IMG/VR virus record: IMGVR_UViG_2883497546_000001
Span: 1-64,000 of that record
Length of the DNA: 64,000 bases
Reading direction: 5' to 3' (one strand)
From: a virus
Taxonomy: Duplodnaviria; Caudoviricetes
Position numbers and translations under genes: made by a program. The notes below the pieces were generated by a model, which was not told the DNA's origin, made no database searches, and saw only the letters and a list, made by a program, of their open reading frames with translations. Positions 3,136 through 27,988 of the stretch are shown here, piece by piece. Position 1 is the first letter of the stretch. The number at the start of each line of letters is the position of its first letter.

Positions 3136-3151
3136 CGTGTTTTCTGGCACC
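3136..3151 (-). promoter_or_regulatory. Virion-regulon motif copy (GGTGCCAGAAAACACG)
   Basis: First base is 29 nt upstream of the ATG at 3122. Confidence 0.6.
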
Positions 3152-6534: not shown

Positions 6535-6547
6535 GGCTATAGTATAG

Positions 6548-6563
6548 TGTACTTTCTGGTACC
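6548..6563 (-). promoter_or_regulatory. Virion-regulon motif copy (GGTACCAGAAAGTACA) within a TTGCGG-N16-TATACT promoter-like sequence
   Basis: 29 nt upstream of the ATG at 6534; TATACT lies 6 nt before the ATG (leaderless-like). Confidence 0.65.
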
Positions 6564-6696
6564 CGCAACCCAATTCTCCCATCCCAGGAGAAGGCCATAC
6601 ATCCCCTGAAGCCGTGATGCCCGATCACTTCAGTCCACGCCCCACGGTCAAGCAACACCACGCAGCGCAAATGCACAGCAGGGCAGGGGAGCATTC

Positions 6697-6759
6697 GATA
6701 GCCTGGAGGGCCTTCGTCCACCCACTCAACTCACGCTCCACCTGCACGGGCCTGACGTT
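6697..6759. repeat. ~65-bp cassette-boundary repeat (GATAGCCCGGAGGGCCTTCGAATACCCACCCAGCTCACGCTCCACCTGCACGGGCCTGACGTT)
   Basis: Copies at ~8116-8177, 8603-8665, 13865-13930, 14621-14684, 17125-17188, 19463-19529; diverged copies at 52272-52332 and 57881-57942. Confidence 0.85.
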
Positions 6760-6811
6760 CGTCCCCCTCGCGGCACTCCGCATCCTCACCCACCGCCCAC
6801 AGGCAAAACCC

Positions 6812-7342
6812 TCACGCCAGCCGATTCTCCTCAGTCAAACGCTCAATAAGCTCCGTAACCTCCGCCTCTCGATCACCCAGGCCACTCCACGTCGACAGCA
6901 TAATCGCTATGCTCAGCCGGTCATACTTGCGCATCGCGAGCGACGCCATCCTCACAAATCGCGCATACGTCTCCGCGTCAAATCTCAGATAGTAAAACCC
7001 CGCCACCCAATTCGTCATTTGCGCCTCGCTCAGCTTGCCCGGCTCTTGCTCTTGTTCCAGCCTCTCCCACAGCCACCCCGTCCCGGGTCCCGTGCGCGCC
7101 GCCAGTCGCACCGCCTTCACCGTCGACCCCAGGCGGAGAGGCGTGCATGTCGAGGTCAGCACCGCATAGCACGCCGCCAGCAGTTCCTCCTCCGTACGTT
7201 CACCGCTCCACCGCTCCAGCAGCACATCCGCCTCGTGATCATTGAGCTCATCACCACGCAACGCATCCAGCACCTGCAAAACATCCTCAGCAGCATTCAT
7301 AAAATTTCTCAGCGTACCAGACAGCAGAGTGCGGTTCAGCAC
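6812..7342 (-). CDS. Hypothetical protein (possible orphan immunity protein)
   Basis: 176-aa acidic helical ORF at the distal end of the cassette array, followed by the boundary repeat. Confidence 0.5.
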   Translation of the reverse strand: MLNRTLLSGTLRNFMNAAEDVLQVLDALRGDELNDHEADVLLERWSGERTEEELLAACYAVLTSTCTPLRLGSTVKAVRLAARTGPGTGWLWERLEQEQEPGKLSEAQMTNWVAGFYYLRFDAETYARFVRMASLAMRKYDRLSIAIMLSTWSGLGDREAEVTELIERLTEENRLA

Positions 7343-8266
7343 AACTCACCATCGCGCATTCGTTCGTTCATTTGTTGAGACTTGCGAAATAGACTGACAA
7401 TTCTCTGCTTTGTGATTTGGAACTGAACCACCAAGTTGCAGTCTGGGGGACCGCAGGCTCCCGCGAACCGCATGTGCGTCAGGTTAAAAAGCTGTGCGTG
7501 GTCTCAACAGCGAAATGGAACGCTGCGGACGCACTCGACGTACCAGTTCGCATTGCGTCTTGGAGTGCGGTGGCATCGGCCTCCCTTGAGGCCGCGACAC
7601 CGCCTTCAACGAAGGGATTCCGTCTAGATTTCACGCAGTACGTCAGAAGAATCCAGCATTCTCTAATGAGAACGCATCTTGGGGATTTTGGAATGTAAAT
7701 CTGCTCCATCATTCTCATCCCCTTCGTTCAAGGCGGTGTCGCGTGCGCAGGGCGGCTCGGAGACTTGGAGTCCCTTACCGCAAAAAAGTTCAAACAAGCT
7801 GCGTCCGCCTCTCCCGCTTGATCTTCACCACATCGCCATGCACAGGAGCAGCCCTCGGCAGTGAGGTCACGAGCAGAGTCACCGCCCACAGTGTGATGTA
7901 GAGAGCTCCGGCCGCCACCCACTCAGACCCTCACCAGCAAACGCGCATTCATAGCCGCGTGCGAAGCCGCGAGGAACGAGCAACCTCCCGGTGCTTCAAT
8001 ATCTCCAAATCGATTGCCACACCCAATGCCATTGGTTGGCCACGTGGGTGCGTTCTACACCAGCGTGGACCACACCACCGCAGACCTTCGGGTGTATCAG
8101 AGCATGATGCCTTGGGCAGCCCGGAGGGCCTGCGAAAGCCCTCTCTGCTCGCGCTCCACCTGCACGGGCCTGACGTTAGCCGTCCTATGAGTCGCGCACT
8201 GATGCCACCTTTCCTGAAGACATTTAGATTCGAAAAGGCCACGGAGAGGGGTAGTCAGAAGCTTTC

Positions 8267-8482
8267 CTAGTCCAGTACAGCACCGAGAGATTCGGCGAGA
8301 GCCCGAAACTCTGTTCTCTTGATCTCACTCTCGAATTGAAGAGTTACCGGTTCACCGCCAATGACATTTTCAATCAGGGCCTTTGCGTCACCAAGACCAA
8401 CCCCCGAGTATCTTCCAACTGCTGCCATTAATGAAACCACTTTCGTCTTTGGCTTCAGTCGAACGATTTTGAGTGTGTTCAT
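8267..8482 (-). CDS. Small protein with ribosomal L7/L12 C-terminal-like pattern (possible orphan immunity)
   Basis: KVVSLMAAVGRYSGVGLGDAKALIE...LAESLGA; ATG overlaps the stop of a short upstream stub (ATGA). Confidence 0.55.
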   Translation of the reverse strand: MNTLKIVRLKPKTKVVSLMAAVGRYSGVGLGDAKALIENVIGGEPVTLQFESEIKRTEFRALAESLGAVLD

Positions 8483-8717
8483 AGTCCGATTTTCAACATA
8501 ATCTGGCGAGGATAATGCACGCCCCCTTCTTCGCCGCCGTTCCTTCTCAGGAAGCGGACCCGCGGGTTAGCTGAGTGGGGGAGTCCCGCAAGAACTGACC
8601 GTGGATAGCCCGAAGGGCCTTCGAATACCCACCCAGCTCACGCTCCACCCGCACGAGCCTGACGGTGGGGCCTACCGTGTGTCCACACGCTCGAGTGCCA
8701 GGCAGTGCCTGCTGAAC

Positions 8718-9128: not shown

Positions 9129-9168
9129 AATACATCATAGCTTCAGCCGCGCGCCACGCGAAGCTGGC

Positions 9169-9375
9169 CTAAAGCATGGGAATTGCCTTGGCCCCATCTT
9201 TGTCTACGTCGACACGAATGAAGCTGGGATCAGAGTCAATCATATCAAGGGTCTGAACTGCGCACACCCATTTGTCTTCCGTTTTGACTTTTGTCATTGA
9301 AACGGAAACGAGCTCAGACTCATCAACACCCGACTCCTTGAGAATCGAATCAAGAACTTTTCGAATATCGTTCAT
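9169..9375 (-). CDS. Putative immunity protein B (68 aa)
   Basis: Starts immediately after the toxin stop; same length as and homologous to 17213-17419 (MND..K.L...L..SGV...W.C.......P.FIR..V...GA..IPML). Confidence 0.7.
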   Translation of the reverse strand: MNDIRKVLDSILKESGVDESELVSVSMTKVKTEDKWVCAVQTLDMIDSDPSFIRVDVDKDGAKAIPML

Positions 9376-9895
9376 TTAGTGATTATTTATGTTTAGCATG
9401 AACTTGAGAGATCGAGGGCCAAACTCTGACTCATAGAACAGCATGTCTTTTACCGCCTCATCCAGCTCTTCATTGGTGAACCGATGTTCGAACTTTACTA
9501 TCTGTTCAAAAACATACAACTCACGGTGGTATGTTTTTAGTTTGCGGTACTCAGCCAATCCCAGTTCAGAGCACTGTTTTGCATGGCAGATCTCGTGGAA
9601 ATAGTCGAAATAGGTCGCATTGGATCCAAGATGCATTTTTCCTTTGAGTGCCCGAAATAATGCTCGTGCTTTCTTTGTCCGCAAATAGGCGTCAGAGTTT
9701 CTCACCAATTTCCACTGGGGCCTGCCAGGTAATGTAAGTTCAGCCAGTTCCTTCTTTATGGCGGTGAACATTCCTTCCGTCAGCCTGATTCCGCCGAGCC
9801 TGCCAGTGTTCCTCAATGGAGCAGCGTCAATATCATCGGAACTTCGATTGGCCCTCGCAGCTCTTAAGACATCAATCAGACTGCGGACATCGCTA
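9376..9895 (-). pseudogene. Zincin-like HExxH metallopeptidase toxin tip (Tox-MPTase4-like), separated from its N-terminal part by IS5
   Basis: ATYFDYFHEICHAKQ...GLAEY...RELYVF; homologous to the C-terminus of 17416-19416; frame continues up to the IS junction. Confidence 0.7.
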
Positions 9896-10750
9896 GGTCG
9901 TGTCTGAAAACCTGTATTTAGGACCTTAGCCAGTCAATCACTGCGGCGAAGTGAATAAGGGACAGGAAGTTCTGAGCAAGCTTGTCACGACGGGTGGCGG
10001 TGCAGCCCCATCGCTTCAAGCGGCAGAAGAAGTTCTCCACCCGGTATCGAGTGCGGTAAAGTTTCTTGGGGATGCGCACCTGATGTTTGCGGTTCTTCTT
10101 GGTGGGGAAGCACGGTTGATGACCCAAAGCGCGTAGTGTGTCGCGAAGTTTGTCATCATCAAAACCCTTGTCCCCCACGATGCGCAGATTACATCCCGCT
10201 CTGATTAGATTGACCACATGACGTCCTTCGTAAGCCTGTCCTTCAATGAGCGCTGTGTTGACCAAGCGACCTTGGGCATCGGTCAGAGCCATGAGCTTGG
10301 TGTTGCGTCCACCACGCGTCTTTCCCATGGCTTGTGTGGCAGCACCGCCAGCGGGATTGGCCGCGCATTGGTGCACCAGGATGTGAGTGCCATCCACCAA
10401 GCGCACCGGACCGCGGACTCGGCGCGTGAAGACCTCCAGGATTTTGAACCAAAGGCCCTCCTTGGCCCAGCGGCTGTGCCAGCCGTGAATGGTGGAGTAC
10501 GGCCCGAACCGCTCTGGCAGGTCACGCCAGGGCCCTGCGTTGCGCAGGCGATAGAACAGGGCGTCCAATAACAGGCCCAAGTCGGTGCGAGGTCGCCCGC
10601 CTTGATTTACCTGGGCACCACCATTTTTGTGAGCCGCTTTTTCAGCGGCTCCCACCAGAGAAATCGAACTTTCATGTCGTTCCTATGCTGCCACCAAATA
10701 TCCTCTGAGCCACGTTATTTAAGACTCATTTGAGGTTCTCAGACATGACC
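9896..10750 (-). mobile_element. IS5-family insertion sequence, 855 bp
   Basis: 18-bp TIRs GGTCGTGTCTGAAAACCT / GGTCATGTCTGAGAACCT; CTAG at both junctions (9893-9896, 10750-10753). Confidence 0.92.
9918..10655 (-). CDS. IS5-family DDE transposase
   Basis: GRP...WRDLPERFGPYSTI, LVDGT, GKTRGGRNTK, VGDKGFD, YRTRYRVENFFCRLK. Confidence 0.93.
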   Translation of the reverse strand: MGAAEKAAHKNGGAQVNQGGRPRTDLGLLLDALFYRLRNAGPWRDLPERFGPYSTIHGWHSRWAKEGLWFKILEVFTRRVRGPVRLVDGTHILVHQCAANPAGGAATQAMGKTRGGRNTKLMALTDAQGRLVNTALIEGQAYEGRHVVNLIRAGCNLRIVGDKGFDDDKLRDTLRALGHQPCFPTKKNRKHQVRIPKKLYRTRYRVENFFCRLKRWGCTATRRDKLAQNFLSLIHFAAVIDWLRS

Positions 10751-13700
10751 TAGGATTGTTCAGATGTGAAGAATCGCCTTGTGGACTTTGTTGTCGGGAT
10801 TCGGGGGCGATCGCATGCATCGCCACAAGAGGAGGTTGTGGTCCGTCTTTAATTGGCGATTGCAACGGAAGTCCGAATGCCAAGCGATTCTCTTCGGAAA
10901 TCTTCGCCGTTGCTCCTTGGCCTTCTTGAAATCTCCCATTTGTGCCAAAGGATGAAGCCCCGTTCAACAGTGTACGGGATGTTGTCATGGCGGTGACATC
11001 TGTGTCTTTACCTTTCGTCCCCTTCACCATCCCCCTCCGCGTCGCCCGGATAAGGCCACGCACGTGCGCATCAAGCACCTCTTGGGTCATCTCTTGGGAC
11101 GGAGCACCCAGCGGATTGAACGCACGCACCACCCAGTCGCGCATCGCCTGCCACATGCGCTGCATCACACTGCCGGGTTCTAGTTGCGCACGGCCCTCCA
11201 TGTTGCCCACCTGATGGGCAAACCACTCCAGCGCCAGCGCCTCCCTATTGCCGGTCAAGTGCGTGTAGCGCCCTTCAAGCTCTTGCATCTGCTCAGCGGG
11301 TATCGCCGCCGCCAGCTTCTTCCATTCCTCAGCAAACTTGCTGTCGCTCTCCCGCAACGCATCAAACCCATGGTGCCCCACCCGCTCATGCACCACCACG
11401 CGTGCAAGTGCCTGCGCCGCCGTCTCGCCCTCCAGCACACGCACATTGTCACGGAAGATCACCACCGTGCCATCACGCGGGTCATGGAATCCCTCTGCGT
11501 CCTGCATGATGTCCCAGTCCTCCGCGTGATAGCGTTGCTGTTCGGGACGACCTTGCAGACCATCCAGGGCCGCGTGGTTATCCACGACAAGCACGTTGCC
11601 ATAGATGGCACGCCCCTGCGCCGTGTTCTTGAGCCGCGCCTCCGCAGCAGTCGTCTCCGCCCGCGTTACACCGGTCCGCTTGACTCGCTCGGAGCCGGTG
11701 GCTTCGCCTAGGCTGTAGAAGAGGATGTTTGGACTTTGGTCTGTGCCACGTAGTCTAAATAACGGTGACTCAGATTGCGAAGTTGCTTCTCCTCCTCTGT
11801 GAGGTGGGTATGCGCCGAAAGATTTTGAAGGACGCGACCCAAGCTCCAGTCCCTCCAGCCTGACTTTTGCCAGGAGGGCCCGAGCAAGCGTTGTCTCACC
11901 AACTCCGCTACGTCCGGGGTCCAGTCCTGTAACGAGAGCTGCGTAATCGTCTTCAGAAAGTTGTCGCCAGTGAGATGGTCCTCCATCCGTGCCTCCTTGC
12001 TTTTGCCATACAGTATCCGTGTCTGGGTCATAACGCAAGTCCTCCAGCGACTTTCCTCGTGCCTGCATTTCACTGGCCACGTAGTTCATCTCCGCACGCA
12101 GTAGCAGATCCAGATTGTGTCTGAAGTCCACCTCCGACTTCTCCTCGCGCCATTCTGACCTTGCCGGTAGGAACTTGTTATTTCTGTCTTTGGCGTCATA
12201 TGGCTGCAAATGCCGTGAAGTGCGGTGCCGCAGCATGCTGGAGATCATGTGGCTGATGCGTCTTCGTTGGGCAATCGGAGTGACATCACGCCCATCTGGT
12301 ATGAACACCAGGCCGTTGTTGTGCGCATAGGTCTGCACTGCCTGGTAAATGAGGTCGCCTCCCTGCACCTTCTTGGCGACCTGACCCGCGCGATTACCCT
12401 GCGTGTCCACCCAGACCGTGCCATCAGTCATGACATTGACCACCACATCTCCGCCTTGGTTGATCTTTACGGTGTAGGACCGTGCAATGTCCTCGTTCAT
12501 GGGCACATTGGGCTCCACCAGCACATTTTCGGGCTCCTTCACTTTGGACGCCATCGTCTGCATGATGGCATTCAGATCCTTATCAGCCACCGCGGGCCCG
12601 CGCCGGAACGTGTCATCTGTAGCCAGTGACTGGAATGTCTCCGCCAGTACGTTGACGTCACTGCCGCCTTGCCGCTGCTGCGCATCAGCGCCACTGAAGC
12701 TCAGTCTCCCTTCAGCCCCCACACCCACCTCCGCTGGCATCTGCGTTTCCTTGCCACCACCATCATTTCCCATCACACCCTCCACCGCCAGCGAACCACC
12801 TCGCGAGATCACCTGCGAAGTGATCAGCGCCGTGATGTCATTAAACTCGGCGGACTGAACGCCTCACCCTCAAACACCGTGTGCCCCAGCGCCGCCACAT
12901 ACTCCTCCAGCACCTCCTCCGGCATCCCCTGAATCTCCATCTTCGCCAGCCGTTCATTCGCCCGCGCCAGGAACCTCGCTGCCTTCTCCGCACCCATCTT
13001 CTGCGCAAACGCCTGGAAGAGCCCCTCCTTCACTACCGCCTCCTGCTGCCCCGCACTCATCCGCCGGAACGCCTTCGCCACCCCCGGCGCCTTGATGAAG
13101 CCACCCAGCCTCTCTGAACCATTCTCCACCATCTGGTGCACAAACGCCCCTCGCAGCTTCTCCCACGGCGACCCCGGTTGATACCCCGCCTCCAGGCCAA
13201 GGATCACCTTCCCATCCGCACCCCGGTGCATCTCCAACCCCTCGAAGTGCAGGTCCGTAAAAGCCTTGCTCGCCACATGCGAGGCCGAGGCCGCCACCGT
13301 CTGCCCCGCCAGTCCCAGCGTCCCCAGCGCCAGGCGCGTCAGCAGCAGTTTCTCCACCTCATGACGGCCCTCCACCGTCGCCAGTCGACGCAGCCCCAGC
13401 CCCGCCAGATCCATCGCGCCCTTCTTCGTCGCCGTCGCCGCCCCGCCCGTCGTCCCCAGTTCCACACCGAACGACGCCGAGCTCACCGTGAAGTCCAGCA
13501 CCTGCCCCCACCATGAGTTCTCGCGCCTCATCTCCGTGAGTGCCTCCTGCAACATGATGGCGTCACCATCGGTCATCTGCTCACCCCGTTTCAGCTTCTC
13601 CGCGGAAGCCGCCACCGACGCCAGATAACCTATTTCCACAAACCCACCTACAAACGGCGCCCGTTCCTCCCAGAACCGCGGATTGAGCAGCAACTCCACC

Positions 13701-13804
13701 ACACCTTTCGGCAGCTCACTTGCCGAATCGAAGATCGCCTGACTCTCAAACGCCGCCATCAGTGCCTCATCATCATCCAGAATCGGCCCCAGTGCCGCCC
13801 GCAT
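10751..13804 (-). pseudogene. Cassette 4: second polyvalent/ejection-like protein fragment (frameshift near 12850, IS-interrupted)
   Basis: ORFs 12824-13804 and 10719-12812 abut in different frames; contains LARVVVHERVGHHG (zincin-like HExxGH); begins right after the boundary repeat. Confidence 0.6.
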
Positions 13805-14018
13805 CTTTTCAGGAAGCGGACCCGCGGGACGACAGGGTAGGGGAGTCTATCAGCGAGTACCTTTGGATTGCCCGGAGGGCCTTCGAATACCCACCCAGCT
13901 CACGCTCCACCTTCATCGGACTGACGTTGGGCCCCACAAGTAGTGGAGCGCTAATAGCCTGCAGCACGTCCTACCAGCCATCCCCGTTTTTTAGATGCAT
14001 GGCTGTGACCTGCTTCCA

Positions 14019-14573
14019 TTACTGATTTTCGATGAAGCTCAACAAGGCCTTGGCGTCTTTGTATTTCCACGGTGCCGGATTGCCAAACTGCACCACCTCA
14101 CCGCGCTCCTTCACTCCCGCCGCTTGCCGCACCGCCGCGTTCAGCCCTTCGGTCACCAGACCCGCCGGCAGCCGCGTCCCATCCTTGCGACGCCCCAGCA
14201 CATCCGCCGTCACAATCGCACTGATGGCCTCCGTCAGCGACCGCGGTGCCTTGTCCGCAGACCCCAGCACCTCCGCATCCGCCGCACTCAGGAACTTCTG
14301 CCCCGTTGCCTTCTCCGCCAGGCGCACCCACAGCAGCCCCTGCTCCCGTGTATAGCGACCGTTATCCAGTCCCGCCTTCCACCGGCCCTCAACCTGCTCC
14401 TCCACCGCAGTAAGCACATTGCCCCCGCGGAAGATGGTCGAGACCATCGTGCGCACATTATTACGTCGCTCCGCCCGATTGCTTCCCAGCACATGCCACG
14501 TCGCCGCCAGCGACTCCTCCCGCGTCATCCCACGCAGCTGCCCCGCCACCACCGCAGCGTCCGCCGCCTGTTC
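14019..14573 (-). pseudogene. Cassette 3: truncated anchor copy fused to an unrelated 20-aa tail
   Basis: Near-identical to ~22613-23106 up to VVQFG, then NPAPWKYKDAKALLSFIENQ*. Confidence 0.8.
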
Positions 14574-14708
14574 AGCAGACCTGTTGTAGATGCATCAGTG
14601 GAGCAGGGGAGTACCCATCTGGATAGCCCGGAGGGCCTTCGAATACCCACCCAGCTCACGCTCCACCTTCATCGGACTGACGTTTGGCGTTCTCCAGAGT
14701 CTGCGTTG

Positions 14709-17086
14709 TCACTTGGCAGCTGCTGCTGCGGCACGCTCCAGATTTTCACGAAGCGCTCCTTTCGGATGCAATACCTTCACATCGAAAGGAAGCAGGAGAT
14801 CGCCAACACGTACGGCATTCTCTTGGTGGAGATCTATCACGGCCGTATTGTCGGAAGCACGGTAGAAGGAGGATGGAGGCACGAGTTGCACAAAGCCTTG
14901 CTCTCTCATTGTCTTGCCGATGAAATTCGTATCTACGGAGTCTCCTCTGATCGTCGGTTGTGAGATGACGAGTCTTACACCGCCATCGCGATCAATATGC
15001 ACCCCATGAACCGCTATGTCATCGCCAAAAAGGGCATTGGCATTGGCTGCACTTTCAAGGTAGTTGATAATGGATGCCTCTTCCCGACGCATGTCCCACG
15101 TTCCTTGGTGGGCAACCGGCCACATCCCAAAATATTCACCCACACCGAGCGTCAACTTTATCACCCGATCCCCGTGAAGAAATACATGGTGTTCCATTTG
15201 ACCCACGTCTTCAGCACCATCGAGTGCCCATTCTGGTGGGAGACTTTGAATCAGGACTCTGCGTTCTCTTGCCCAGTCGACGAGCCATGCCCGCTCCCGT
15301 CGTCGCTGCGCAGTCCGAGCTTGCGGTCCTCCTGCCGGGCTTCCCGTAGGCGGCGCACTTGTGCCAAAAACTCTTCGGTAGTCATGGTGCGCTGTTTCGA
15401 GACGAGTTCGCGCCTCTCCTCGGGAGTGGCCAAATGAGGGACGCCGCGAAGGTGTGGTGGAGTGCTGCGAAGTTCCATAAAGCAAGTTGTCTATATCATT
15501 GATGGCGTTGTCTTGCGAGCGTTTCTTGTCCTCGTCATTTCCGTGATAGGCTTGCCATTGAGCCTGAAGTCGATCGTGAAGAGGTTTGTTTTCGTGTTCG
15601 AGGAATTCTGCGCTTGAATACCCTGCGGCCCGGGCCGCCTGATTGAGCCAAGCAGCAGGACTGAGGGAATGGGATTGACTTCCAGCCTCTTCAGTAGTAG
15701 TATTGTCTTGCGCTCCTGGTTGAGGTGTCTGTACCGCTTGAGACTGGGGCTGTCTCGGAATCCCGATAGCACCGGGACCCCCTTGAGGGGCTAGGCCGGA
15801 AACAGGTCGGACTCGTTCGACCAATGCGCCCCTGAATTGACGCTTGCTCAGTTCGGGGGCGTACTGCGTTACGAGGGCATATTGATCTTTGATGGCACCG
15901 TCCTCGACAATGACCATGTGAGTTCCCTCCGCGTAGTTGCGGAAGTAGAATGTCTCAGGTCCATTGGTCACTCGTACCTGCGCATCGGAGATGGTTTTCT
16001 CTACCGCTCCCACCCAATCCAACTTCTCGGGGCGCAGCGTGCGATCTTCCTGATTCTTGTCGATATTTTCTCCAATGAGATGAGCTGCGCGGTTCTCCAA
16101 CGGATCACCAAATGCTCCTCGCTTTTGGGGATTGGCTATGGTGACTTTGCTCCCCAAGGGTCTTCGACTTTGGGTGCCTTTCCTAACCAAGCGGCAACGT
16201 TCCGCACCAGTGTTTCCCAAGTTCCGCGCCTTTCCGCAAACACGGGGCGACTGTCTTTGAGCTTCGGCAGAAACTTCTTCGCAGAATCCCACGTGTGCCC
16301 CGTCTTCACCTCCTCCCACGACCCCGGCTTGTCCTGCCTCATCTTCGGCACCATGCCGAATGTCGCCACATCGATCTCCCCACGGCTTGCTGCCTCCTCC
16401 GTTATCGATTCGGAACGACTCGTATCATCGATAGCCGCACTTTCATTACCATTGCCTCTTCCATCCGTCCCCATCAAATCATCCAGGAACCCCTCATAGT
16501 CCGCCCCCAGCCGTCCCTCCGCTCGCGCCTTGTTCAGCGCCCGTGCCCGTGAAAACACCTGCCCAAACAACGCCCGCCACGCCCGCAGGAACTGCCCAAA
16601 CTGCACCACCTCACCGCGCTCCTTCACTCCCGCCGCTTGCCGCACCGCCGCGTTCAGCCCTTCGGTCACCAGACCCGCCGGCAGCCGCGTCCCATCCTTG
16701 CGACGCCCCAGCACATCCGCCGTCACAATCGCACTGATGGCCTCCGTCAGCGACCGCGGTGCCTTGTCCGCAGACCCCAGCACCTCCGCATCCGCCGCAC
16801 TCAGGAACTTCTGCCCCGTCGCCTTCTCCGCCAGCCGCACCCACGCCAGCCCCTGCTCGCGTGTATAGCGCCCGTTATCCAACCCCGACTTCCACCGTCC
16901 CTCAATCGGCTCCTCCACCGCCGTGAGCACATTCCCTCCGCGGAAGATGGTCGAGACCATCGTGCGCACATTATTGCGCCGCTCCGCACGATTGCTTCCC
17001 AGCACATGCCAGGTCGCCACCAGCGACTCCTCCCGCGTCATCCCGCGCAGCTGCCCTGCCACCACCGCAGCGTCCGCCGCTTGTTC
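14709..17086 (-). pseudogene. Cassette 2: anchor + shared domain B + alternative polyvalent-protein kinase tip (1-nt frameshift near 16146)
   Basis: GGTGACTTTGC here versus GGTGACTTTTGC in cassette 1; tip GQMEHHVF...VIKLT...NALFGDDI...VISQP...DLHQEN...PFD. Confidence 0.8.
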
Positions 17087-17212
17087 AGCGGAACTGCTAT
17101 ATATTTATCAGCAGGACAGTCTGCATAGCCTAGTGGGCCTTCGAACAACCACCTAGCTCACGCTCCACCTACACGGACCTGACGTTGGTGCGTTTAGACT
17201 TGCTAAGCTGTG

Positions 17213-17419
17213 CTACAGCATCGGAATAACACGAGCCCCGCCTTCATACACTTGGATACGAATGAACCCAGGTTCGATCTCCTTCGTCTTTTCAGTGGCT
17301 ATTGAGCACTCCCAAAGATCTTTGTCTTTGTCTTTGAAAAGAGCAATGTCAATCGCGTCAGAGGCTGCTACACCTGATTTGCTGAGCGCGATTTGTAATA
17401 TTTTGAAAGGGTCATTCAT
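17213..17419 (-). CDS. Putative immunity protein A (68 aa)
   Basis: ATGA overlap with the toxin stop; paralog of 9169-9375; lower GC. Confidence 0.7.
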   Translation of the reverse strand: MNDPFKILQIALSKSGVAASDAIDIALFKDKDKDLWECSIATEKTKEIEPGFIRIQVYEGGARVIPML

Positions 17420-19416
17420 ATTCCAAGCATGTATTTGAGTGTTCTAGGCCCGAACTTTCTATAAGCAATCAGAGCGTCTTCAATCGCACGATCAATTTCA
17501 AAATCAGTAAACCGGTAGTCATATTTGGCAATCTGATCAAAGACGTACATCTCTCGATCGAATGTGCGCATTTTACGGTAGCCTGCCAGGCCCAATTCAG
17601 CCCGTTGTCTAGCATGGCAGAGTTCGTGGAAGTAGTCAAGGTAAGTGGCATCCGAACCCAAGTGCATTTGGCAGGTTTCAGGATTGAATCCAGCGCGCGC
17701 TTCCTGGCTTTCAAGATAGGCGTCAGAGTTTCTCACCAACGTCCACTTGCTCTCTCCAGCAGGCGTAAGGTCGGCCATTCTCTTTTCGATTGCATCGAGC
17801 ATGCCTTCCGTGAGCAGGATTCCTTCATGCCTGCCTGTGCCTCGGAAAGGTGCAGTATCGATCTCCCCTGAAACCCGCGAGTTTCTTGCTGCCTTCAGCT
17901 TGTCTACCAGCTGGTTCAATTCTTCAGCCGAAGTGGGAGCAACAAAGGCAGCGCCGGGACTTCTAAGAGTTGTGCCGGGGTCTTCTGGGAGCAACGACAT
18001 CGATTGACTTCCAGCCTCTTCAGTAGTAGTATCCTCTTGCGCTCCTGGTTGAGGTGTCTGTACCGCTTGAGACTGGGGCTGTCTCGGAATCCCGATAGCA
18101 CCGGGACCCCCTTGAGGGGCTAGGCCGGCACCCGGTCGGATTCGTTCGACCAATGCGCCCCTGAATTGACGCTTGCTCAGTTCGGGGGCGTACTGCGTTA
18201 CGAGAGCATATTGATCTTTGATAGCGCCGTCCTCGACAACGACCATGTGAGTTCCCTCCGCATAGCTGCGGAAGTAGAAGGTCTCAGGCCCATTGGTGAC
18301 TCGCACTTGCGCATGTGAGATGGTTTTCTCGACCGCCCCAACCCAATCCAGTTTTTCGGGGCGCAGTGTACGATTTTCCTGAGCTTTGTCTACATTCTCA
18401 CCAATCAAGTGTGCGGCTCGATTCTCCAGTGGGTCACCAAACGCTCCTCGTCTTTGGGGATGGGCTATGGTGACTTTTGCCCCCCACGGGTCTTCGACCT
18501 TGGGTGCCTTTCCTAACCACGCAGCAACGTTCCGCACCACCGTCTCCCAAGTGCCGCGCCTTTCGGCAAACACAGGGCGACTGTCTTTGAGCTTCGGCAG
18601 GAACTTCTTTGCAGAATCCCACGTGTGCCCCGTCTTCACCTCCTCCCACGACCCCGGCTTGTCCTGCCTCATCTTCGGCACCATGCCGAATGTCGCCAGA
18701 TCGATCTCCCCACGGCTTGCTGCCTCCTCCGTTATCGATTCGGAACGACTCGTATCATCGATAGCCGCACTTTCATTACCATTGCCTCTTCCATCCGTCC
18801 CCATCAAATCATCCAGGAACCCCTCATAGTCCGCCCCCAGCCGTCCCTCCGCTCGCGCCCTGTTCAGTGCCCGTGCCCGTGAAAACACCTGCCCAAACAG
18901 CGCACGCCACGCCCGCAGGAACTGCCCAAACTGCACCACCTCACTTCGCTCCTTCACTCCCGCCGCTTGCCGCAACGCCGCGTTCAGCCCTTCGGTCACC
19001 AGACCCGCCGGCAGCTTCGTCCCATCCTTGCGACGCCCCAGCACATCCGCCGTCACAATCGCACTGATGGCCTCCGTCAGCGACCGCGGTGCCTTATCCG
19101 CAGACCCCAGCACCACCTCATCCGCATCCGCCAGGAACTTCTGCCCCGTCGCCTTCTCCGCCAGCCGCACCCACGCCAGCCCCTGCTCGCGTGTATAGCG
19201 ACCGTTATCCAGCCCGGACTTCCACCGGCCCTCAATCGGTTCCTCCACCGCCGTGAGCACATTGCCCCCGCGGAAGATGGTCGAGACCATCGTGCGCACG
19301 TTGTTGCGCCGCTCCGCACGATTGCTTCCCAACACATGCCACGTCGCCGCCAGCGACTCCTCCCGCGTCATTCCACGCAGTTGCCCCGCCACCACCGCCG
19401 CGTCCGCCGCCTGCAC
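17416..19416 (-). CDS. Cassette 1: anchor + domain B + HExxH metallopeptidase toxin tip (probably silent, no genuine start)
   Basis: Near-identical to 22418-23103 and similar to 21017-21746; tip DATYLDYFHELCHARQRAELGLAGY. Confidence 0.8.
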   Translation of the reverse strand: MQAADAAVVAGQLRGMTREESLAATWHVLGSNRAERRNNVRTMVSTIFRGGNVLTAVEEPIEGRWKSGLDNGRYTREQGLAWVRLAEKATGQKFLADADEVVLGSADKAPRSLTEAISAIVTADVLGRRKDGTKLPAGLVTEGLNAALRQAAGVKERSEVVQFGQFLRAWRALFGQVFSRARALNRARAEGRLGADYEGFLDDLMGTDGRGNGNESAAIDDTSRSESITEEAASRGEIDLATFGMVPKMRQDKPGSWEEVKTGHTWDSAKKFLPKLKDSRPVFAERRGTWETVVRNVAAWLGKAPKVEDPWGAKVTIAHPQRRGAFGDPLENRAAHLIGENVDKAQENRTLRPEKLDWVGAVEKTISHAQVRVTNGPETFYFRSYAEGTHMVVVEDGAIKDQYALVTQYAPELSKRQFRGALVERIRPGAGLAPQGGPGAIGIPRQPQSQAVQTPQPGAQEDTTTEEAGSQSMSLLPEDPGTTLRSPGAAFVAPTSAEELNQLVDKLKAARNSRVSGEIDTAPFRGTGRHEGILLTEGMLDAIEKRMADLTPAGESKWTLVRNSDAYLESQEARAGFNPETCQMHLGSDATYLDYFHELCHARQRAELGLAGYRKMRTFDREMYVFDQIAKYDYRFTDFEIDRAIEDALIAYRKFGPRTLKYMLGI

Positions 19417-19548
19417 AGCAGACCTGCTATGTCTATATCAGCGGAGTAGGGGAGCACCCATCTGGATAGCCCGGAGGGCCTTCGAATACCATCCCAGCTC
19501 ACGCTCCATCTGCACGGGCCTGACGTTGGACCTGCGGGAGCACATCTG

Positions 19549-22500
19549 CTATCGCCCCTCAAAATTATTCTTTTCTTGCTCCAGAACGTCCTTTCCTGGA
19601 TTCAAAACTTGAAGGTCGATGGGCACCAGAACGTTGTCTGACGTCAGAATGAAGTTCCTCGGATGCGCATCCGTGATCTTCGCGCCCGTCTTGTGATGTG
19701 TCCATGTATTGGGCCCGGTCGGTTCAAAACCTTGCTGCTCAAACCAAGCCGCAACATCTCCAACTTCGGGTGAACGTCCGGCAATGAAGGGCTGGGAAAT
19801 GACCACAGCCGGCCCCGAGGTGGTCTCTACGATACCCTCAATGCGGATATCATCATGGAACAACTGATTGCTCCATTTGATGTTCCTGAGATAATCGGCT
19901 AGCTTTCCTCGTGCACCAAAGTTTGGAGGTCGCGTGATCTTCATCACTCGGCCAGCTTCGCGTACACCAAAAACCTGGTGCTCGGCTCCACCCTCAAACT
20001 CCTTGAAGGATGGAGTCAGCCTTGCGAATCCTGCTGGCTCGATGAGCCATCCGTCTTCTCTGGCCCACGATACCACGGATTGGGACTCGGCACGGAGCCG
20101 TTCTCCCGCATCTGCTTGTGCATTTGCTCGATCGTCATCTTCTGCGCGCGCAAGGAGTGCTCCAAGCGCAGCTTGCGCATCTCTTCGGCGTTCAGTACCT
20201 TGACCATGCTGTTGAACATAAGGGATTGGAATGTTGGAGTCAATGTTTGTTCCACCGCCAGTCGGCTGGCTTTCTAAGTCCTGTGGTGCTCGAGTTTTGC
20301 CCGATTCTTCAGGCGAGCTTGGTAGCATCGAGAACGTCGCAGTTTCATCCATCAGCTCTGCATTGACTTTCAAAGCTTCACGGAGTACCTTCTCTCGCAC
20401 CTGCTGAATGCCGTGTAGCTCTGCTCCTTCATTGGAGCCGTGCCGCGATACGCCCTCGGGGCCGTCAGCAGGTGTGTTTGTGTCCGGAACGGGAAGAATC
20501 ACCTCGAGGACCTGTCCGTCGTACACCCACCTGCCGTTGGCATCTTCATGTACAGTCAGCCGGACCATTGTCTCCTGACCATCGAACCGGACAGGCAACG
20601 CAAGTTTGTGGAACAACTGTAGTCCAGGGACGCTGTTCTTTCGAGAGTCCGGCTTTTCAGAGCGAACGTAGATGGCGCGTTGAAATAGCTCGCGTAAGTG
20701 ACCCATAAGTGACGCTTTGCGAGGGTCCGCTGCATATCGGTTCCAGTGCTCCAATCCGCTCTTGCTCACGTGGATCTCGCGCCCTCTTTCGGCATTGACG
20801 ATGGGGCCTTTCTCTCGCGCATCCTGTAGCGCAGCCTTCATCCTATCTCGCCGCTCGCGCGGCGCGATACCCCGCCAATTGGCTACATCCGGTACATCCA
20901 AGGTTGGTGCTGCCACAGCCTTGGCAATACGAATCTCCTGAGACTCGTTTGGGACAATGCTATAGGACTCCACGTCATCTAGCCCCGTGCCAGTTTTTGT
21001 GGGGGAAGGCACTGGTTGACTTTCCCTTGCACTAGTGGTAGTATCACCATGCGCTTCTGGTCGAGGTGTCTGTACCGCTTGAGACTGGGGCTGCGTCGGA
21101 ATCCCGACAGAACCGGGACCCCCTTGAGGGGCAAGGCCGGGAACAGGTCGGACTTGTTCGACCAATGCGCCCCTGAATTGACGTTTGCTCAGTTCGGGGG
21201 CGTACTGCGTTACCAACGAATACTGGTCTTTAATGGCACCGTCTTCGACGATGACCATGTGAGTTCCCTCCGCATAGCTACGGAAGTAGAAGGTCTCAGG
21301 CCCATTAGTGACTCGTACTTGAGCATCCGAGATGGTTTTCTCCACAGCGCCGATCCAGTCGAGCTTGTCGGGATCCAAAGTGCGATTCTCTTCGTTCTTA
21401 TTAAGATTCTCGCCAATAAGATGTGCAGCTCTATTATCCAGCGGATTTCTAAAGCCGCCACGCTTCTGGGGATTGGCCGTTGCAACCATTGCACCCCATG
21501 GGTCTTTGATAGTCGGGGTCTTTCCCAGCCACGTCGCCACCTTCTGCACCAGAACCTCCCAAGTACCGCGCTTCTCAGGAAATGCCGGTCGGCTGTCTTT
21601 GAGCTTCGGCAGAAACTTCTTCGCAGAATCCCATGTATGCCCCGTCTTCACCTCCTCCCAAGACCCCGGCTTGTCCTGCCTCATCTTCGGCACCATGCCG
21701 AATGTCGCGAGATCGATCTCTCCACGGCTTGCCGGTTCCGTTATCGTATCATTCTCTAGCTGAGAAGCGCTCTCGCCGTGTTGACTTCCATCAGCTTCAT
21801 GGAATACTTCCTTCAAGCCTTCGATAGCAGGGCCGTGCTGGGTAGAAGTGCCGTCAAAGGCGCCATCGCCCTGAGCAAGCCAGGCTTCGAAGGCCCCTTT
21901 GTTTTTGTGCGTGATCAACCCAAGCGATTCCGCTTCTCGAATCTCCGCCAGTAGTTCGCCGGGTTCCTTGCCGAACAGTGTCTTTGCCTCCAAGACGTGC
22001 TGTCCTTCACGTTCATGCACCGTGAAATACGCCGTCAGCGGACCTTGTGACGTCGCAAGACTGGTCACGATGGAGTGCGCCTTGCGGTCCCCGGGACTCA
22101 CATACACAAGCATTGGATTGTCCATCGCTCCGGGGAACTTCTTCAGTACCTCTTCCGTGAGCTCAGAGTGCTTGCCGCGCTTCTTGCGCACCTTGCTCAA
22201 GCGAATCCACATGGGCAGGTCCGGTACCCCGGCCTTCCGCAGCACCTCGCCCGGACGCCCCATATCCAAAATCGCATTGGCCGGAAGTCGCCCTTTGACC
22301 GCCGCTTCGACGTTCTCCGCAAAAGGCACCGGAGCCACACCAAAGGTCACCCCGTTCTCCTCCCATAGCGTTTCCCCGGGATTGAGGGTGAGGGGAGTGG
22401 TCTTCCCATCGGAGAGCTCCGTTATCGATTCGGAACGACTCGTGCCATCGATAGCGGCATCCTGGTTGCTATTACCACTCCCATCCACCCCCATCAAATC

Positions 22501-25311
22501 ATTCAGGAACCCCTCATAGTCCTCACCCAACCGTCCCTCCGCTCGCGCCTTGTTCAGCGCCCGTGCCCGTGAAAACACCTGCCCAAACAACGCCCGCCAC
22601 GCCCGCAGGAACTGCCCAAACTGCACCACCTCACCGCGCTCCTTCACTCCCGCCGCTTGCCGCACCGCCGCGTTCAGCCCTTCGGTCACCAGACCCGCCG
22701 GCAGCCGCGTCCCATCCTTGCGACGCCCCAGCACATCCGCCGTCACAATCGCACTGATGGCCTCCGTCAGCGACCGCGGTGCCTTGTCCGCAGATCCCAG
22801 CACCTCCGCATCCGCCGCACTCAGGAACTTCTGCCCGGTCGCCTTCTCTGCCAGCCGCACCCACAGCAGCCCTTGCTCCCGTGTATAGCGACCGTTATCC
22901 AGCCCGGACTTCCACCGGCCCTCAATCGGTTCCTCCACCGCCGTGAGCACATTGCCCCCGCGGAAGATGGTCGAGACCATCGTGCGCACATTATTACGTC
23001 GCTCCGCACGATTGCTTCCCAACACATGCCACGTCGCAGCCAGCGACTCCTCCCGCGTCATCCCGCGCAGCTGCCCTGCCACCACCGCAGCGTCCGCCGC
23101 TTGTTCCTCGGACACCACGTGCTCCGCCACGTCATCCTCCAATGACCTGCTCTCACCCGGCGCCACAGCGAAAGCCTCCGGCGTCCCCGCTCGCTTCTGG
23201 TCCATGAACACCTCGCCCATGCGGGCCACCGAGTCCACCACCTGCATCTCCACATCCGTGAGGTGCTGCTCCGCATACTGCCGCGCCTCTCCCCAGGTCT
23301 CCGCGCGGACTGCCGTTCCATTCTTGAGTGATACAATGTATCCGTTTCCATCATTCGCGATCTTCGGCACCATCCCCAGCCGCTGCCCATCACTCTGCGC
23401 CTGCTGTGCCTCACCCAATCGTGCTCGATACCGCTCCTCAAACTCCGCTGCCACCTCTCGCGATGCCCTGCCGCGCGCTTCCTGCAGCGCCGCCTGCGCC
23501 GCCTCCAGCTTGCCTTCCATCGCCAGGCCAATGATCTTGATGCGGTCCGCCTCCACGTACCCCGCCGCACCCAGCGAAATATTGTCCGCGAGAATGGCCC
23601 GCGCCATGGCCACGTCCCTGACTGAAGCCGCACCCAGACCCAGAAGCGTCAATGGCAGCAGACCCACGGCCACATCGCCGCGCGTGTTCAAGTAGCGTTC
23701 CTTCTCCCGCTCCACATCTACTCCAGGAAGATCCTTCTTGATCGCCGCAAAGAGCGCGTGCGTTGCAGGAAGTGTTACATCCTGCACCCCTTCCTGCACA
23801 TTCTGGTAAACGTAGTTGCCACCCACCTTCAGCAGCGCCATCCCAATCATCTCCCGCTTCAGCCCTCCTTGAACCAACTGACGCAGCGAGGGCATCGTAT
23901 TCAGCACCTTCAGTCCCACCATGTCGGGGACCATCTCCAGCACCCCTGAGGTCAGCGCGATTCGGCGCGCATACGGGATGGGCATGTCAGGATATTCCAG
24001 CCTGAGCTGCTCATAGTTGTTCGCAGTGTAGTGCTGGACAATGACCGGGGCCGCCGCACCTCGCGTCAACCCCATCACGCCCAAGATGCCCATCGATACC
24101 CCAAACGTCGACGCCGTGACCGAGTCATTCGGCGAGGCCATATGCGCCATCTGCCGCACCTGGCGCGCCACATTCACCTTCTCCCGCTCCCGCTCCTTGT
24201 ATTGTCTCACCAGCGCAGACTCATCAGCGTCGAGCCTCTTCTCAACACCACCAATGATGGGTATGTGGCCCACTGCTGCCGTTCCCATCGACATCCTCGC
24301 CGCGAAGACCTGAGCCCTGTTTCTGCTCTCCTGCTCCTTGAAAAACTTCGCGGCATCCTCCCGATTTGTGATCTTCGGTACCGTGGTCGTCACCGGAGTG
24401 AGCATGTCGTCCGGCACACTCTCGATGCCTTCCTCTTGGAAGCTCGTATCACCAGTGACAAACCTCTCCAGGGCCGACCCGGCTTGCAGCCACCATCCCC
24501 TTTTTCCCTTCTCCTGCTCACCGCGCACCTTCGCGCTGTGCAGCGCTGCCAGCGTCACCAGCGTGCGATTTCGCTGTGGCAGATCCGCCAGCTTCTCAAT
24601 CCAGGCCCTCGTATCCGCGTCATTAAACGGCTCCGCGGCAGACGCCAGCTTCTGAATCTCCGCGCGATGTGGCGCCAGCGCCTCCTTCGTCGTCAGGTAG
24701 GCATCGATGAAAGTCTTCCGGGAGTCCTCAGAGTAGCCCGGCTTCGCCTTGTTCTGCGACTCCCAGGCACTCAGTTCATCCAGCCCAATGCCCTTCCCTC
24801 TGCCCTCAATCGCAGCCGTTGTCCCGCCCTTGGCTGCATCATCCAGGGATTGAAGCGTTGCCTGGATGTGCAAATACACCTCATCATCCGTCGCCGTATC
24901 CCGGCCCATCCTCGTGTATACATAGTTCGCCTTGTATAGCGGATATTCCAGATTCACCTCGTCCGTCGTTTTCCCATCAGCATGGGCAAAGAACGCGACG
25001 TTGAACATCTGCCGCTTCTCCGACTCCGCATGGGGCGAATAGCGCGTCAGCCTGTCCAGTTCCTCAGCCTCCTCAGGATCGAGTTCCGGCTTTTCTTTGA
25101 AGTAGCCTCGCACCCGGTTGTAGTCCGCCGCCTGTTGTTGCGCCAGCGCGGAGTAGGGTTCGCGCCCCTCGCGGCGCACCCGCTCGTGGTACTCCGCCAT
25201 CGTTTGTTCTGCCGTCACAATCTGGTCGGCAGGGATTTTTCCGTTCTCCAGACTCTGGCGTAGAGTGTCCGCCGCCAGATCTAGTTCCTCAGATTCCGTG
25301 ATGGTGGGCAT
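19549..25311 (-). CDS. Large internal virion/ejection protein (gp16 position) with C-terminal polyvalent domains: MuF-C-like, unknown domain B, LPD3-like, Kinase-PolyVal-like
   Basis: Synteny after gp14/gp15-like genes; LDMGRPGEVLRKAGVPDLP..KH..L.EE.LKKFP.AMDNP (MuF-C); VNAERGREIHVSKSGLEH...VRLTVHED.NG..YD (LPD3); GGAEHQV..VMKIT..NQLFHDDI..VISQP..DAHPRN..PID (kinase). Confidence 0.8.
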   Translation of the reverse strand: MPTITESEELDLAADTLRQSLENGKIPADQIVTAEQTMAEYHERVRREGREPYSALAQQQAADYNRVRGYFKEKPELDPEEAEELDRLTRYSPHAESEKRQMFNVAFFAHADGKTTDEVNLEYPLYKANYVYTRMGRDTATDDEVYLHIQATLQSLDDAAKGGTTAAIEGRGKGIGLDELSAWESQNKAKPGYSEDSRKTFIDAYLTTKEALAPHRAEIQKLASAAEPFNDADTRAWIEKLADLPQRNRTLVTLAALHSAKVRGEQEKGKRGWWLQAGSALERFVTGDTSFQEEGIESVPDDMLTPVTTTVPKITNREDAAKFFKEQESRNRAQVFAARMSMGTAAVGHIPIIGGVEKRLDADESALVRQYKEREREKVNVARQVRQMAHMASPNDSVTASTFGVSMGILGVMGLTRGAAAPVIVQHYTANNYEQLRLEYPDMPIPYARRIALTSGVLEMVPDMVGLKVLNTMPSLRQLVQGGLKREMIGMALLKVGGNYVYQNVQEGVQDVTLPATHALFAAIKKDLPGVDVEREKERYLNTRGDVAVGLLPLTLLGLGAASVRDVAMARAILADNISLGAAGYVEADRIKIIGLAMEGKLEAAQAALQEARGRASREVAAEFEERYRARLGEAQQAQSDGQRLGMVPKIANDGNGYIVSLKNGTAVRAETWGEARQYAEQHLTDVEMQVVDSVARMGEVFMDQKRAGTPEAFAVAPGESRSLEDDVAEHVVSEEQAADAAVVAGQLRGMTREESLAATWHVLGSNRAERRNNVRTMVSTIFRGGNVLTAVEEPIEGRWKSGLDNGRYTREQGLLWVRLAEKATGQKFLSAADAEVLGSADKAPRSLTEAISAIVTADVLGRRKDGTRLPAGLVTEGLNAAVRQAAGVKERGEVVQFGQFLRAWRALFGQVFSRARALNKARAEGRLGEDYEGFLNDLMGVDGSGNSNQDAAIDGTSRSESITELSDGKTTPLTLNPGETLWEENGVTFGVAPVPFAENVEAAVKGRLPANAILDMGRPGEVLRKAGVPDLPMWIRLSKVRKKRGKHSELTEEVLKKFPGAMDNPMLVYVSPGDRKAHSIVTSLATSQGPLTAYFTVHEREGQHVLEAKTLFGKEPGELLAEIREAESLGLITHKNKGAFEAWLAQGDGAFDGTSTQHGPAIEGLKEVFHEADGSQHGESASQLENDTITEPASRGEIDLATFGMVPKMRQDKPGSWEEVKTGHTWDSAKKFLPKLKDSRPAFPEKRGTWEVLVQKVATWLGKTPTIKDPWGAMVATANPQKRGGFRNPLDNRAAHLIGENLNKNEENRTLDPDKLDWIGAVEKTISDAQVRVTNGPETFYFRSYAEGTHMVIVEDGAIKDQYSLVTQYAPELSKRQFRGALVEQVRPVPGLAPQGGPGSVGIPTQPQSQAVQTPRPEAHGDTTTSARESQPVPSPTKTGTGLDDVESYSIVPNESQEIRIAKAVAAPTLDVPDVANWRGIAPRERRDRMKAALQDAREKGPIVNAERGREIHVSKSGLEHWNRYAADPRKASLMGHLRELFQRAIYVRSEKPDSRKNSVPGLQLFHKLALPVRFDGQETMVRLTVHEDANGRWVYDGQVLEVILPVPDTNTPADGPEGVSRHGSNEGAELHGIQQVREKVLREALKVNAELMDETATFSMLPSSPEESGKTRAPQDLESQPTGGGTNIDSNIPIPYVQQHGQGTERRRDAQAALGALLARAEDDDRANAQADAGERLRAESQSVVSWAREDGWLIEPAGFARLTPSFKEFEGGAEHQVFGVREAGRVMKITRPPNFGARGKLADYLRNIKWSNQLFHDDIRIEGIVETTSGPAVVISQPFIAGRSPEVGDVAAWFEQQGFEPTGPNTWTHHKTGAKITDAHPRNFILTSDNVLVPIDLQVLNPGKDVLEQEKNNFEGR

Positions 25312-27984: not shown

Positions 27985-27988
27985 AGTA

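Follow-up and report, generated by a model that had tools for sequence, protein, structure and literature searches.

A probable adaptor-headed, recombining effector-module locus in a T7-like prophage of the Verrucomicrobiaceae

The stretch of DNA analyzed here (the window; 64,000 nucleotides (nt), positions 1 to 64,000 of the IMG/VR record IMGVR_UViG_2883497546_000001) corresponds to bases 2,551,192–2,615,191 of a single-contig genome of 7.96 Mb, which was assigned to the family Verrucomicrobiaceae as the host EF-Tu groups with metagenome-assembled genomes of this family. The minus strand carries a structural module of the T7-like (HTVC010P) type and, within it, a gene of 1920 amino acids (aa; 19549–25311, the main gene) with an internal segment of 690 nt, the anchor A, that recurs three times downstream. 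In our judgement, main gene and downstream units probably constitute an adaptor-headed, recombining effector-module locus of a T7-like (HTVC010P-type) prophage. Interchangeable modules, all headed by the adaptor segment A, would make up this locus, with one of them fused to an ejection-type N-terminal domain (N-domain) and the others located downstream.

The main gene, its anchor and the downstream cassettes

The main gene, encoded like all cassettes described below on the minus strand, consists of the N-domain (aa 1–735, 23107–25311), anchor A (aa 736–965, 22417–23106), a MuF_C-like insert that in this genome is exclusive to the main gene (aa 966–1188, 21748–22416), a block B to which no Pfam family corresponds (aa 1189–1426, 21034–21747) and a tip (aa 1427–1920). 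Two Pfam domains were detected in the tip, LPD3 (aa 1485–1597; 1.1e-20, 74.4 bits) and Kinase-PolyVal (aa 1742–1899; 2e-11, 44.6 bits), and the MuF_C match in the insert was sub-threshold (24.7 bits vs. a cut-off of 27.6). The N-domain is all-helical, with hydrophobic helices. Neither a transglycosylase domain nor an N-terminal MuF domain of the SPP1 gp7 type was found in the main protein, the internal sub-threshold match being the only trace of MuF_C. As in polyvalent proteins, several unrelated effector or LPD domains are combined in one polypeptide, and this polyvalent-type gene is flanked by virion genes, namely those for the portal, the capsid, tubes A and B, an internal virion protein and fibers.

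An initial annotation of this DNA had described a segment of about 690 bp copied three times downstream of the main gene, the third time in truncated form, and self-blastn bore this out, with identities of 92–96%. Specifically, main-gene positions 23103–22417 aligned with 19413–18727 (cassette 1; 92.2%), 23112–22417 with 17092–16397 (cassette 2; 94.1%) and 23106–22616 with 14573–14083 (cassette 3; 95.9%). No further copy of the anchor was present anywhere else in the 7.96-Mb genome. The copies had also been said to start at the same point of the main gene, and all three indeed begin within 6 nt of it; an in-frame TGA is located 8 codons upstream of cassettes 1 and 3. The similarity between units extends beyond A, as cassettes 1 and 2 have A and B in common over 1.5 kb (91.6% identity), and B of the main gene, which lies behind the 670-nt MuF_C insert, is 82% identical at the nucleotide level to their B blocks. 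The tips therefore differ, as previously proposed, but not directly after A, since B is also shared.

Cassette 1 (17416–19416) is an intact open reading frame (ORF) of 666 codons from GTG 19416, composed of A (18727–19416), B (18022–18726) and a tip (17416–18021) which matches the polymorphic-toxin peptidase family Tox-MPTase4 (2.3e-14) and has the motif HELCH. Cassette 2 (14709–17086) is made up of A (16397–17086), B (15693–16396) and a tip (14709–15692) with a borderline match to Kinase-PolyVal (25.9 to 27.3 bits), and a 1-nt deletion in an A-run near 16150–16166 splits it into two ORFs. In cassette 3 (14019–14573) the anchor is cut to 491 nt (14083–14573) and followed by a 20-codon stub. 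These tips, including LPD3 and kinase in the main gene, agree with those listed in the initial annotation. Cassette 4 (9169–13804) lacks the anchor and comprises an ORF of 326 aa with an ATG start (12824–13804), an ORF of 697 aa with an LPD37 domain (10719–12812; 78.7 bits) and a second Tox-MPTase4 tip (9376–9903; 3.2e-14, motif HEICH). The description of this cassette as an anchor-less unit ending in a second HExxH peptidase and a paralogous 68-aa gene was accurate as to its parts, but it had left out an IS5-family element (DUF4096 and DDE_Tnp_1; approximately 9892–10754) which splits the LPD37 ORF from the peptidase tip. The ORF at 12824–13804 gave no significant match to a profile of the N-domain core, and searches of the cassettes against PHROGs and PDB sequences yielded no match. 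Two small ORFs (8267–8482 and 6812–7342, both on the minus strand) are located beyond cassette 4.

Both Tox-MPTase4 (PF15640) tips scored well above the curated cut-off (53.9 and 53.4 bits vs. 25) and both have an HExxH motif. Each is followed by a small gene of 68 aa: the partner of cassette 1 (17213–17419, minus strand) overlaps the cassette stop as ATGA, and the second one (9169–9375, minus strand), 40% identical to the first, abuts the tip of cassette 4. Including one case in another genome of the same genus (G403, see below), a 68-aa gene thus abuts or overlaps the stop of three out of three Tox-MPTase4 tips. Because of these three coupled instances and the faster divergence of the small protein, it is plausible that the pairs represent toxins and their immunity proteins, with the 68-aa product as a candidate for the immunity protein or inhibitor. 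Zhang et al. (PMC3482391) gave no immunity family for this peptidase. No small gene was found after the LPD3/kinase tip of the main gene or after the kinase tip of cassette 2, and a search with the Tox-MPTase4 tip returned no near-length homologues.

The codon at the anchor boundary is GAA in cassettes 2 and 3, GTG in cassette 1 and ATG in none of them; other genes here start with ATG in an AT-rich context. Short, similar linkers are found at the module boundaries (22417–22440, 21748–21790, 18022–18060 and 15693–15730): SESITE precedes and TITE follows the main-gene insert, and DTTT followed by EEAGSQS opens the tips of cassettes 1 and 2 and of the G403 module. They could be processing sites or reflect microhomology at the junctions.

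The units are punctuated by a dispersed element of about 90 nt, termed E, with seven copies in the window (between 6679 and 19534) and the invariant core AACGTCAG ... GGTGGAGCGTGAGCTGGG ... TTCGAAGGCCC. E precedes cassettes 1–3, the ORF starting at ATG 13804, two small-ORF units and the fiber gene starting at 6582, at a distance of 20–45 nt from cassette anchors or module starts and of approximately 100 nt from the fiber and small-ORF starts. These seven copies are all on the minus strand. Copy 1 (19447–19534) begins about 15 nt past the main-gene stop and ends 31 nt before GTG 19416; copies 2 (17106–17196) and 3 (14604–14694) follow, and copy 4 (13848–13938) lies 43 nt upstream of ATG 13804. 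The remaining three copies are located at 8590–8675, 8097–8187 and 6679–6768, the last one 96 nt upstream of the fiber ATG. About 20 weaker copies were detected elsewhere, mostly at 2.26–3.19 Mb of the genome; these dispersed copies are usually found ahead of co-oriented ORFs, at distances from a few tens of nt to about 370 nt, and some are situated between two ORFs of divergent orientation. E matched no Rfam family, its predicted hairpin showed no compensatory changes, and neither a sigma-70-like promoter nor an intrinsic terminator signature was recognized in it. A coding leader peptide was rejected, as substitutions in E have no third-position bias; E is also non-coding, given that it stands in different frames relative to the downstream ORF in different genomes. 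E may represent a 5´ leader or promoter-proximal element. Since the main-gene TAG, E and the anchor of cassette 1 lie in one frame, ribosomes might read through the main-gene stop and continue into cassette 1. This read-through was ruled out by in-frame stops in the E copy of cassette 2 and by the other frame of E relative to the ORF in G403.

Gene conversion, selection and relatives of the locus

The initial annotation proposed recombination through the anchor, and the copies of A carry its traces. The nearest copy changes by block along A: the main gene equals cassette 2 in one block (0/60 differences) and cassette 1 in another (0/107), cassettes 1 and 2 are identical in a third (0/48), the main gene matches both cassettes 2 and 3 in a fourth (1/295), and in a fifth cassettes 1 and 2 are again identical (0/120) with the main gene differing at 19 of the 120 positions. 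All three possible site partitions occur among the copies. Because of these mosaic tracts, we conclude that the main gene and the cassettes have undergone gene conversion with each other. Pairwise ratios of nonsynonymous to synonymous substitution rates (dN/dS) in the anchor ranged from 0.06 to 0.24, and changes private to one copy were enriched for synonymous sites in every copy, including those of the cassettes. As the differences are mostly synonymous, the A copies have been under coding constraint and bear the mark of translated sequence: either they are translated themselves, or their differences were imported from functional alleles. The anchor differences are not adenine-specific, and a diversity-generating retroelement was rejected as their source.

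The congener G403 (same genus, 7.9 Mb) carries the element in the same context. Its capsid protein is 94% identical at the amino acid level, the flanks are 80–86% identical in nucleotides, and the core region on the rpoBC side is 96% identical. In contrast, the N-domains of the two main proteins are only 24% identical, and the anchor of G403 (A´) shares 29% of its amino acids with A; the N-domain portion underwent wholesale replacement (23107–25311 here vs. 133907–136144 of G403 contig 15). Nevertheless, A´ is itself repeated in G403, at 94–96% nucleotide identity, and heads two downstream modules. Each of them is a complete ORF with an ATG start 26–31 nt behind a copy of E (contig 15, 138748–138830 and 141320–141405). 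Module 1 consists of A´, B and Tox-MPTase4 (56.8 bits), is followed by two tandem 68-aa genes and matches cassette 1 across 623 residues. Module 2 consists of A´ and a MuF_C part which is 88.8% identical in amino acids to the insert within the main gene here. The main gene of G403 has a zeta toxin tip, is split by a frameshift between N-domain and anchor (ORFs of 745 and 737 aa) and also contains in-frame stops. An IS5-family copy, 89% identical to the one in cassette 4, is present there as well (contig 15, 142513–143374) and cuts a different module, A´-MuF_C.

This comparison bears on the start of cassette 1: in the alignment, GTG 19416 falls within one codon of the ATG in G403, and both are equally far from E. 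The claim that the cassettes lack a credible start would thus apply to cassettes 2 and 3, with GAA, but probably not to cassette 1, which together with its 68-aa partner is probably a gene that can still be expressed. Cassettes 2–4 have the appearance of decaying copies and not of a reservoir held ready for use. When the two genomes were compared, dN/dS values of 0.13–0.16 were obtained for B, the peptidase tip and the 68-aa gene, at dS values of 1.4–1.9, against a dS of 0.35 for the capsid gene; capsid and tube genes had dN/dS values of 0.10–0.22. As their dS is far above that of the capsid, the modules are old, constrained alleles which were exchanged and not inherited with the backbone.

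Only three proteins in an index of 5.8 billion sequences share the N-terminal 735 aa. The closest relative, P0001, is 41% identical over an alignment from residue 1 to 943, ending inside the end of A, and since its homology stops there, A represents the tail of the constant region. The tips of the other relatives comprise a zeta toxin, ART with DUF7178 and a kinase, LPD37 with a kinase, and EndoU. A constant N-terminus with variable tips, as anticipated for related loci, was therefore observed. The single main protein found no relatives when used to query genome contigs; the chromosomal relatives came from a genome search. Another genus of the family carries chromosomal copies of the locus. 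In one of them, G354, the downstream modules are headed by main-gene pieces (111–456 nt, 78–98% identity), and in G342 by a piece of 190 nt. The main gene of G342 (L011; contig 24, 1–4500) ends in a bacterial EndoU nuclease domain (3.9e-20); the 550-nt gap between the EndoU end and the next long ORF could hold a small immunity gene.

A profile of the N-domain core retrieved 55 IMG/VR contigs of up to 33–41 kb. In the viral contigs checked, the gene order was capsid, tube A, tube B, internal virion proteins, main gene and fiber, and in three of them the fiber gene starts 37 nt past the main-gene stop. Both here and in dozens of phage contigs of approximately 35–40 kb, the main gene is thus placed behind the gp14- and gp15-like genes and ahead of the fiber gene. 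The C-terminal parts in viral contigs include ART-PolyVal (10/27), DUF7178, LPD37, MuF_C, LPD13, LPD3 and GNAT.

Interpretation of the locus and its alternatives

In the reading that we favor, the main protein would combine the N-domain and A with MuF_C-like, B, LPD3 and kinase parts as its payload, and the downstream units would be payload genes, with or without A and B in front, each preceded by a copy of E. Gene conversion would keep the A copies near-identical within a genome, with A differing strongly between genomes, and homologous recombination via A (and B) would, on an evolutionary time scale, have relocated payloads from the fused to the downstream slots or the reverse. Here, cassette 1 and its 68-aa partner would probably still be expressible, cassettes 2 and 3 would be dead copies and cassette 4 would be broken by the IS5-family element. 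The proteins would be made late, packed in the capsid and ejected into the infected cell before the DNA, the main protein being packed via its N-domain and the separate modules possibly via an association mediated by A. The 68-aa proteins would restrain the Tox-MPTase4 peptidase in the producer or lysogen. We infer packaging in the virion from the gene order, from the published inference for polyvalent proteins and from the proteomics of phi24B (see below).

Several observations weigh against this interpretation. Assignment of the main gene to the gp16 position, made in the initial annotation, is upheld as to its gene-order slot in podovirus contigs but not as to homology, as no Pfam, PHROG or PDB sequence match linked the main protein to T7 gp16. 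A model of the N-terminal 965 aa (mean predicted local distance difference test score, pLDDT, of 58.9) gave no Foldseek match at E ≤ 0.001, with noise only among PDB structures; a model of this poor quality leaves distant homology to gp16 possible. With GAA at the start of cassettes 2 and 3, and ATG as the usual start, most units here may be untranslated, and three of the four cassettes are damaged, by a frameshift (2), reduction to a stub (3) or an insertion (4). Only five representatives of the 68-aa family were found in 1.84 billion proteins. None of the 55 phage contigs, about 34 of which have at least 1 kb of downstream sequence, had any segment of the main gene repeated downstream, and because of this cassette arrays may accumulate only in chromosomal, possibly defective, copies. 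Finally, a docking function of A would be pure conjecture.

The initial annotation had instead seen silent swap cassettes in the downstream units, i.e., start-less orphan copies from which recombination via A exchanges, in real time, the payload of a single expressed ejection protein. The swap would take place during replication or in a lysogen population and give particles with alternative effectors, the immunity genes being retained. We consider this unlikely. In length and similarity, the anchor repeats would suffice for RecA or phage recombinases, and conversion tracts involve the main gene; however, a crossover between direct repeats deletes the DNA in between, which would make switching one-way per molecule. 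None of the three cassettes has an ATG at the anchor boundary and an in-frame TGA occurs just upstream, in line with silence, but the equivalents in G403 are complete ORFs that start with ATG behind E, and cassette 1 has a GTG at the homologous position. A fused MuF_C module in one genome and a downstream one in the other would also fit such swapping, which Iyer et al. (2017) proposed for Verrucomicrobium spinosum. It is difficult to reconcile with the purifying selection on the modules and on cassette-specific anchor changes, and with the broken state of cassettes 2, 3 and 4.

Less likely still, in our view, is that the array is a fossil record, in which leftovers of past tip replacements or unequal crossovers persist in an old defective prophage and function remains perhaps only in the small partner genes. 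The frameshift, the stub and the insertion in cassettes 2, 3 and 4, respectively, would be expected from decay, as would the frameshifted main gene of G403 and the lack of fiber homologues in the stretch of G403 compared. The structural region is also larger (about 44 kb) than the longest related phage contigs (33–41 kb), no tyrosine integrase lies within about 300 kb, and free phage contigs are devoid of cassettes. Set against this decay are the intact ORFs of the main gene (5.8 kb) and of cassette 1 (2 kb) and the dN/dS values of 0.10–0.22 in capsid and tube genes and of 0.13–0.16 in the module. In addition, a second species and other genera have retained the design, although their anchor is a different one.

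A bolder proposal, to which we attach a similarly low probability, is that the locus encodes a phage-derived multi-payload protein injector for bacterial conflict, i.e., an old, vertically kept and domesticated podovirus-like particle system. A would then serve as a packaging or docking code that loads several A-headed effectors beside the ejection protein, concerted evolution would match adaptor and carrier, and the 68-aa proteins would form a new Tox-MPTase4 immunity family. This proposal is based on the same chromosomal context in two species, the purifying selection on structural genes, a size too large for self-packaging and the lack of an integrase nearby.

E does punctuate every unit boundary, as a site of site-specific or integron-like cassette capture would, and a diversity-generating retroelement could be thought to make the variation. 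Both origins are very improbable, however, given that the locus contains no recombinase or reverse transcriptase and an IS5-family transposase as its sole transposase, that about 20 copies of E lie elsewhere, mostly upstream of co-oriented ORFs, and given the Rfam result for E and the lack of adenine specificity reported above. An assembly artefact, for which the general risk posed by repeats and a possible homopolymer error behind the single-base A-run deletion in cassette 2 could be invoked, can practically be dismissed, as the copies differ by 4–8% and have different flanks, the genome is one contig of 7.96 Mb, and the independent congener assembly has the same design.

The basic idea behind the adaptor-headed module locus is already published. 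Iyer et al. (2017; PMC5512222) described cassette-like small ORFs beside a large kinase polyvalent protein in V. spinosum and noted that they resemble polymorphic-toxin cassettes which might recombine into the main locus; polyvalent proteins were predicted there to be injected. Zhang et al. (2012; PMC3482391) had earlier recognized delivery by the phage head (MuF) as a polymorphic-toxin route. The suggestion in the initial annotation that the carrier was not known as such a route was therefore mistaken. The V. spinosum locus resembles ours in a giant multidomain protein (LPD3, Kinase-PolyVal, MuF_C and LPD37) among virion genes and in smaller adjoining ORFs with further polyvalent domains, called cassette-like; it likewise has Kinase-PolyVal in exactly two loci of its genome and a host of the family Verrucomicrobiaceae. 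As the source genome studied here shares the family and the two Kinase-PolyVal loci, it probably comes from that organism itself or from a close relative. Outside the window, the second kinase locus of this genome is a stand-alone 309-aa ORF with Kinase-PolyVal (genome 571188–571589). The published account (PMC5512222) differs in consisting of two sentences and a figure, without the repeated anchor, the mosaic tracts, E, the Tox-MPTase4/68-aa pairs and the congener comparison. New here are the anchor at the nucleotide level, the evidence for recombination and selection, E, the comparison with the congener and the candidate immunity family.

Orphan modules of CdiA, Rhs and MafB (PMC3482391) share with this locus a constant N-terminal part with variable tips, downstream units in which the end of the constant part recurs, a toxin domain known from that literature (Tox-MPTase4) with a coupled small gene behind it, and signs of recombination between copies. 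They differ in that the carrier here is, by its gene order, a phage virion protein and not a secretion-system substrate, in that no small gene lies beside the main tip and congener modules have their own start codons and E, and in payloads that here are mostly polyvalent-protein domains and not classic toxins. MuF polymorphic toxins (Zhang et al., 2012; Jamet et al., 2017, PMC5576092) likewise have toxin tips on a phage head protein, predicted capsid delivery and adjoining immunity genes; in contrast, an N-terminal MuF is missing here, and orphan modules are not mentioned in Jamet et al. (2017). The main protein has the gene-order slot, large size and helical, hydrophobic N-terminal part of the T7 gp14–gp16 ejection proteins, but no detectable sequence or fold similarity to gp16 and no transglycosylase domain. 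In virions of phi24B, a 2811-aa polyvalent protein, gp47, was detected by proteomics (10.64898/2026.04.10.717836); polyvalent domains are common to both cases, their presence in a short-tailed virion being an observation for phi24B and a prediction here.

Effectors injected with phage DNA are widely predicted and hardly studied, and the locus is a tractable case, its value being that it makes a published idea testable. Two congeneric genomes have the same module design with unrelated anchors, and one module changed between the fused and the free position. The pairing of a polymorphic-toxin peptidase with an unstudied 68-aa partner could provide the first family of Tox-MPTase4 immunity proteins or inhibitors. 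In some phages, an N-terminal anchor domain is common to several receptor-binding proteins, and T4 internal proteins carry capsid-targeting sequences. These resemble the present modules in a common head segment on otherwise different proteins, possibly a docking or packaging signal, but segment A is internal in the main protein and its docking role would be an extrapolation. The question of whether A serves as a handle for recombination, for docking in the capsid or for both purposes relates to how phages and phage-derived particles diversify the proteins they inject.

The structural region around the modules

The structural genes are located on the minus strand and include those for the portal (43868–45568), capsid (33274–34170; Phage_capsid_2, 4e-67), tail tube A (31588–32190), tail tube B (28817–31264) and a 308-aa internal virion protein (27097–28023; phrog_418). 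A gene of 588 aa (25315–27081), among the internal-virion genes upstream of the main gene, follows. The tail fiber gene with a Collar domain (5266–6582, ATG at 6582) lies after the cassettes. The structural region spans 1177–45568, approximately 44 kb on its own, compared to 33–41 kb for the longest, apparently near-complete related phage contigs, and self-packaging of the element may not be possible. A tyrosine integrase was found no closer than about 320 kb.

A plus-strand island (34170–40864) between the capsid and scaffold genes is missing in G403, where the distance between scaffold and capsid genes is 1.6 kb. The large ORFs of the island (34812–36176 and 37311–40859) had no Pfam match at E ≤ 0.001, and ten flanking ORFs also gave no match to Pfam. 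A second fiber gene is located at 1800–3188, and both this gene and that at 5266–6582 match the N-terminal part of the single fiber of related viral contigs. An acyltransferase gene (3498–5279, plus strand) lies between the two fiber genes, and a LamG-type gene (1177–1800) follows the fiber gene at 1800–3188.

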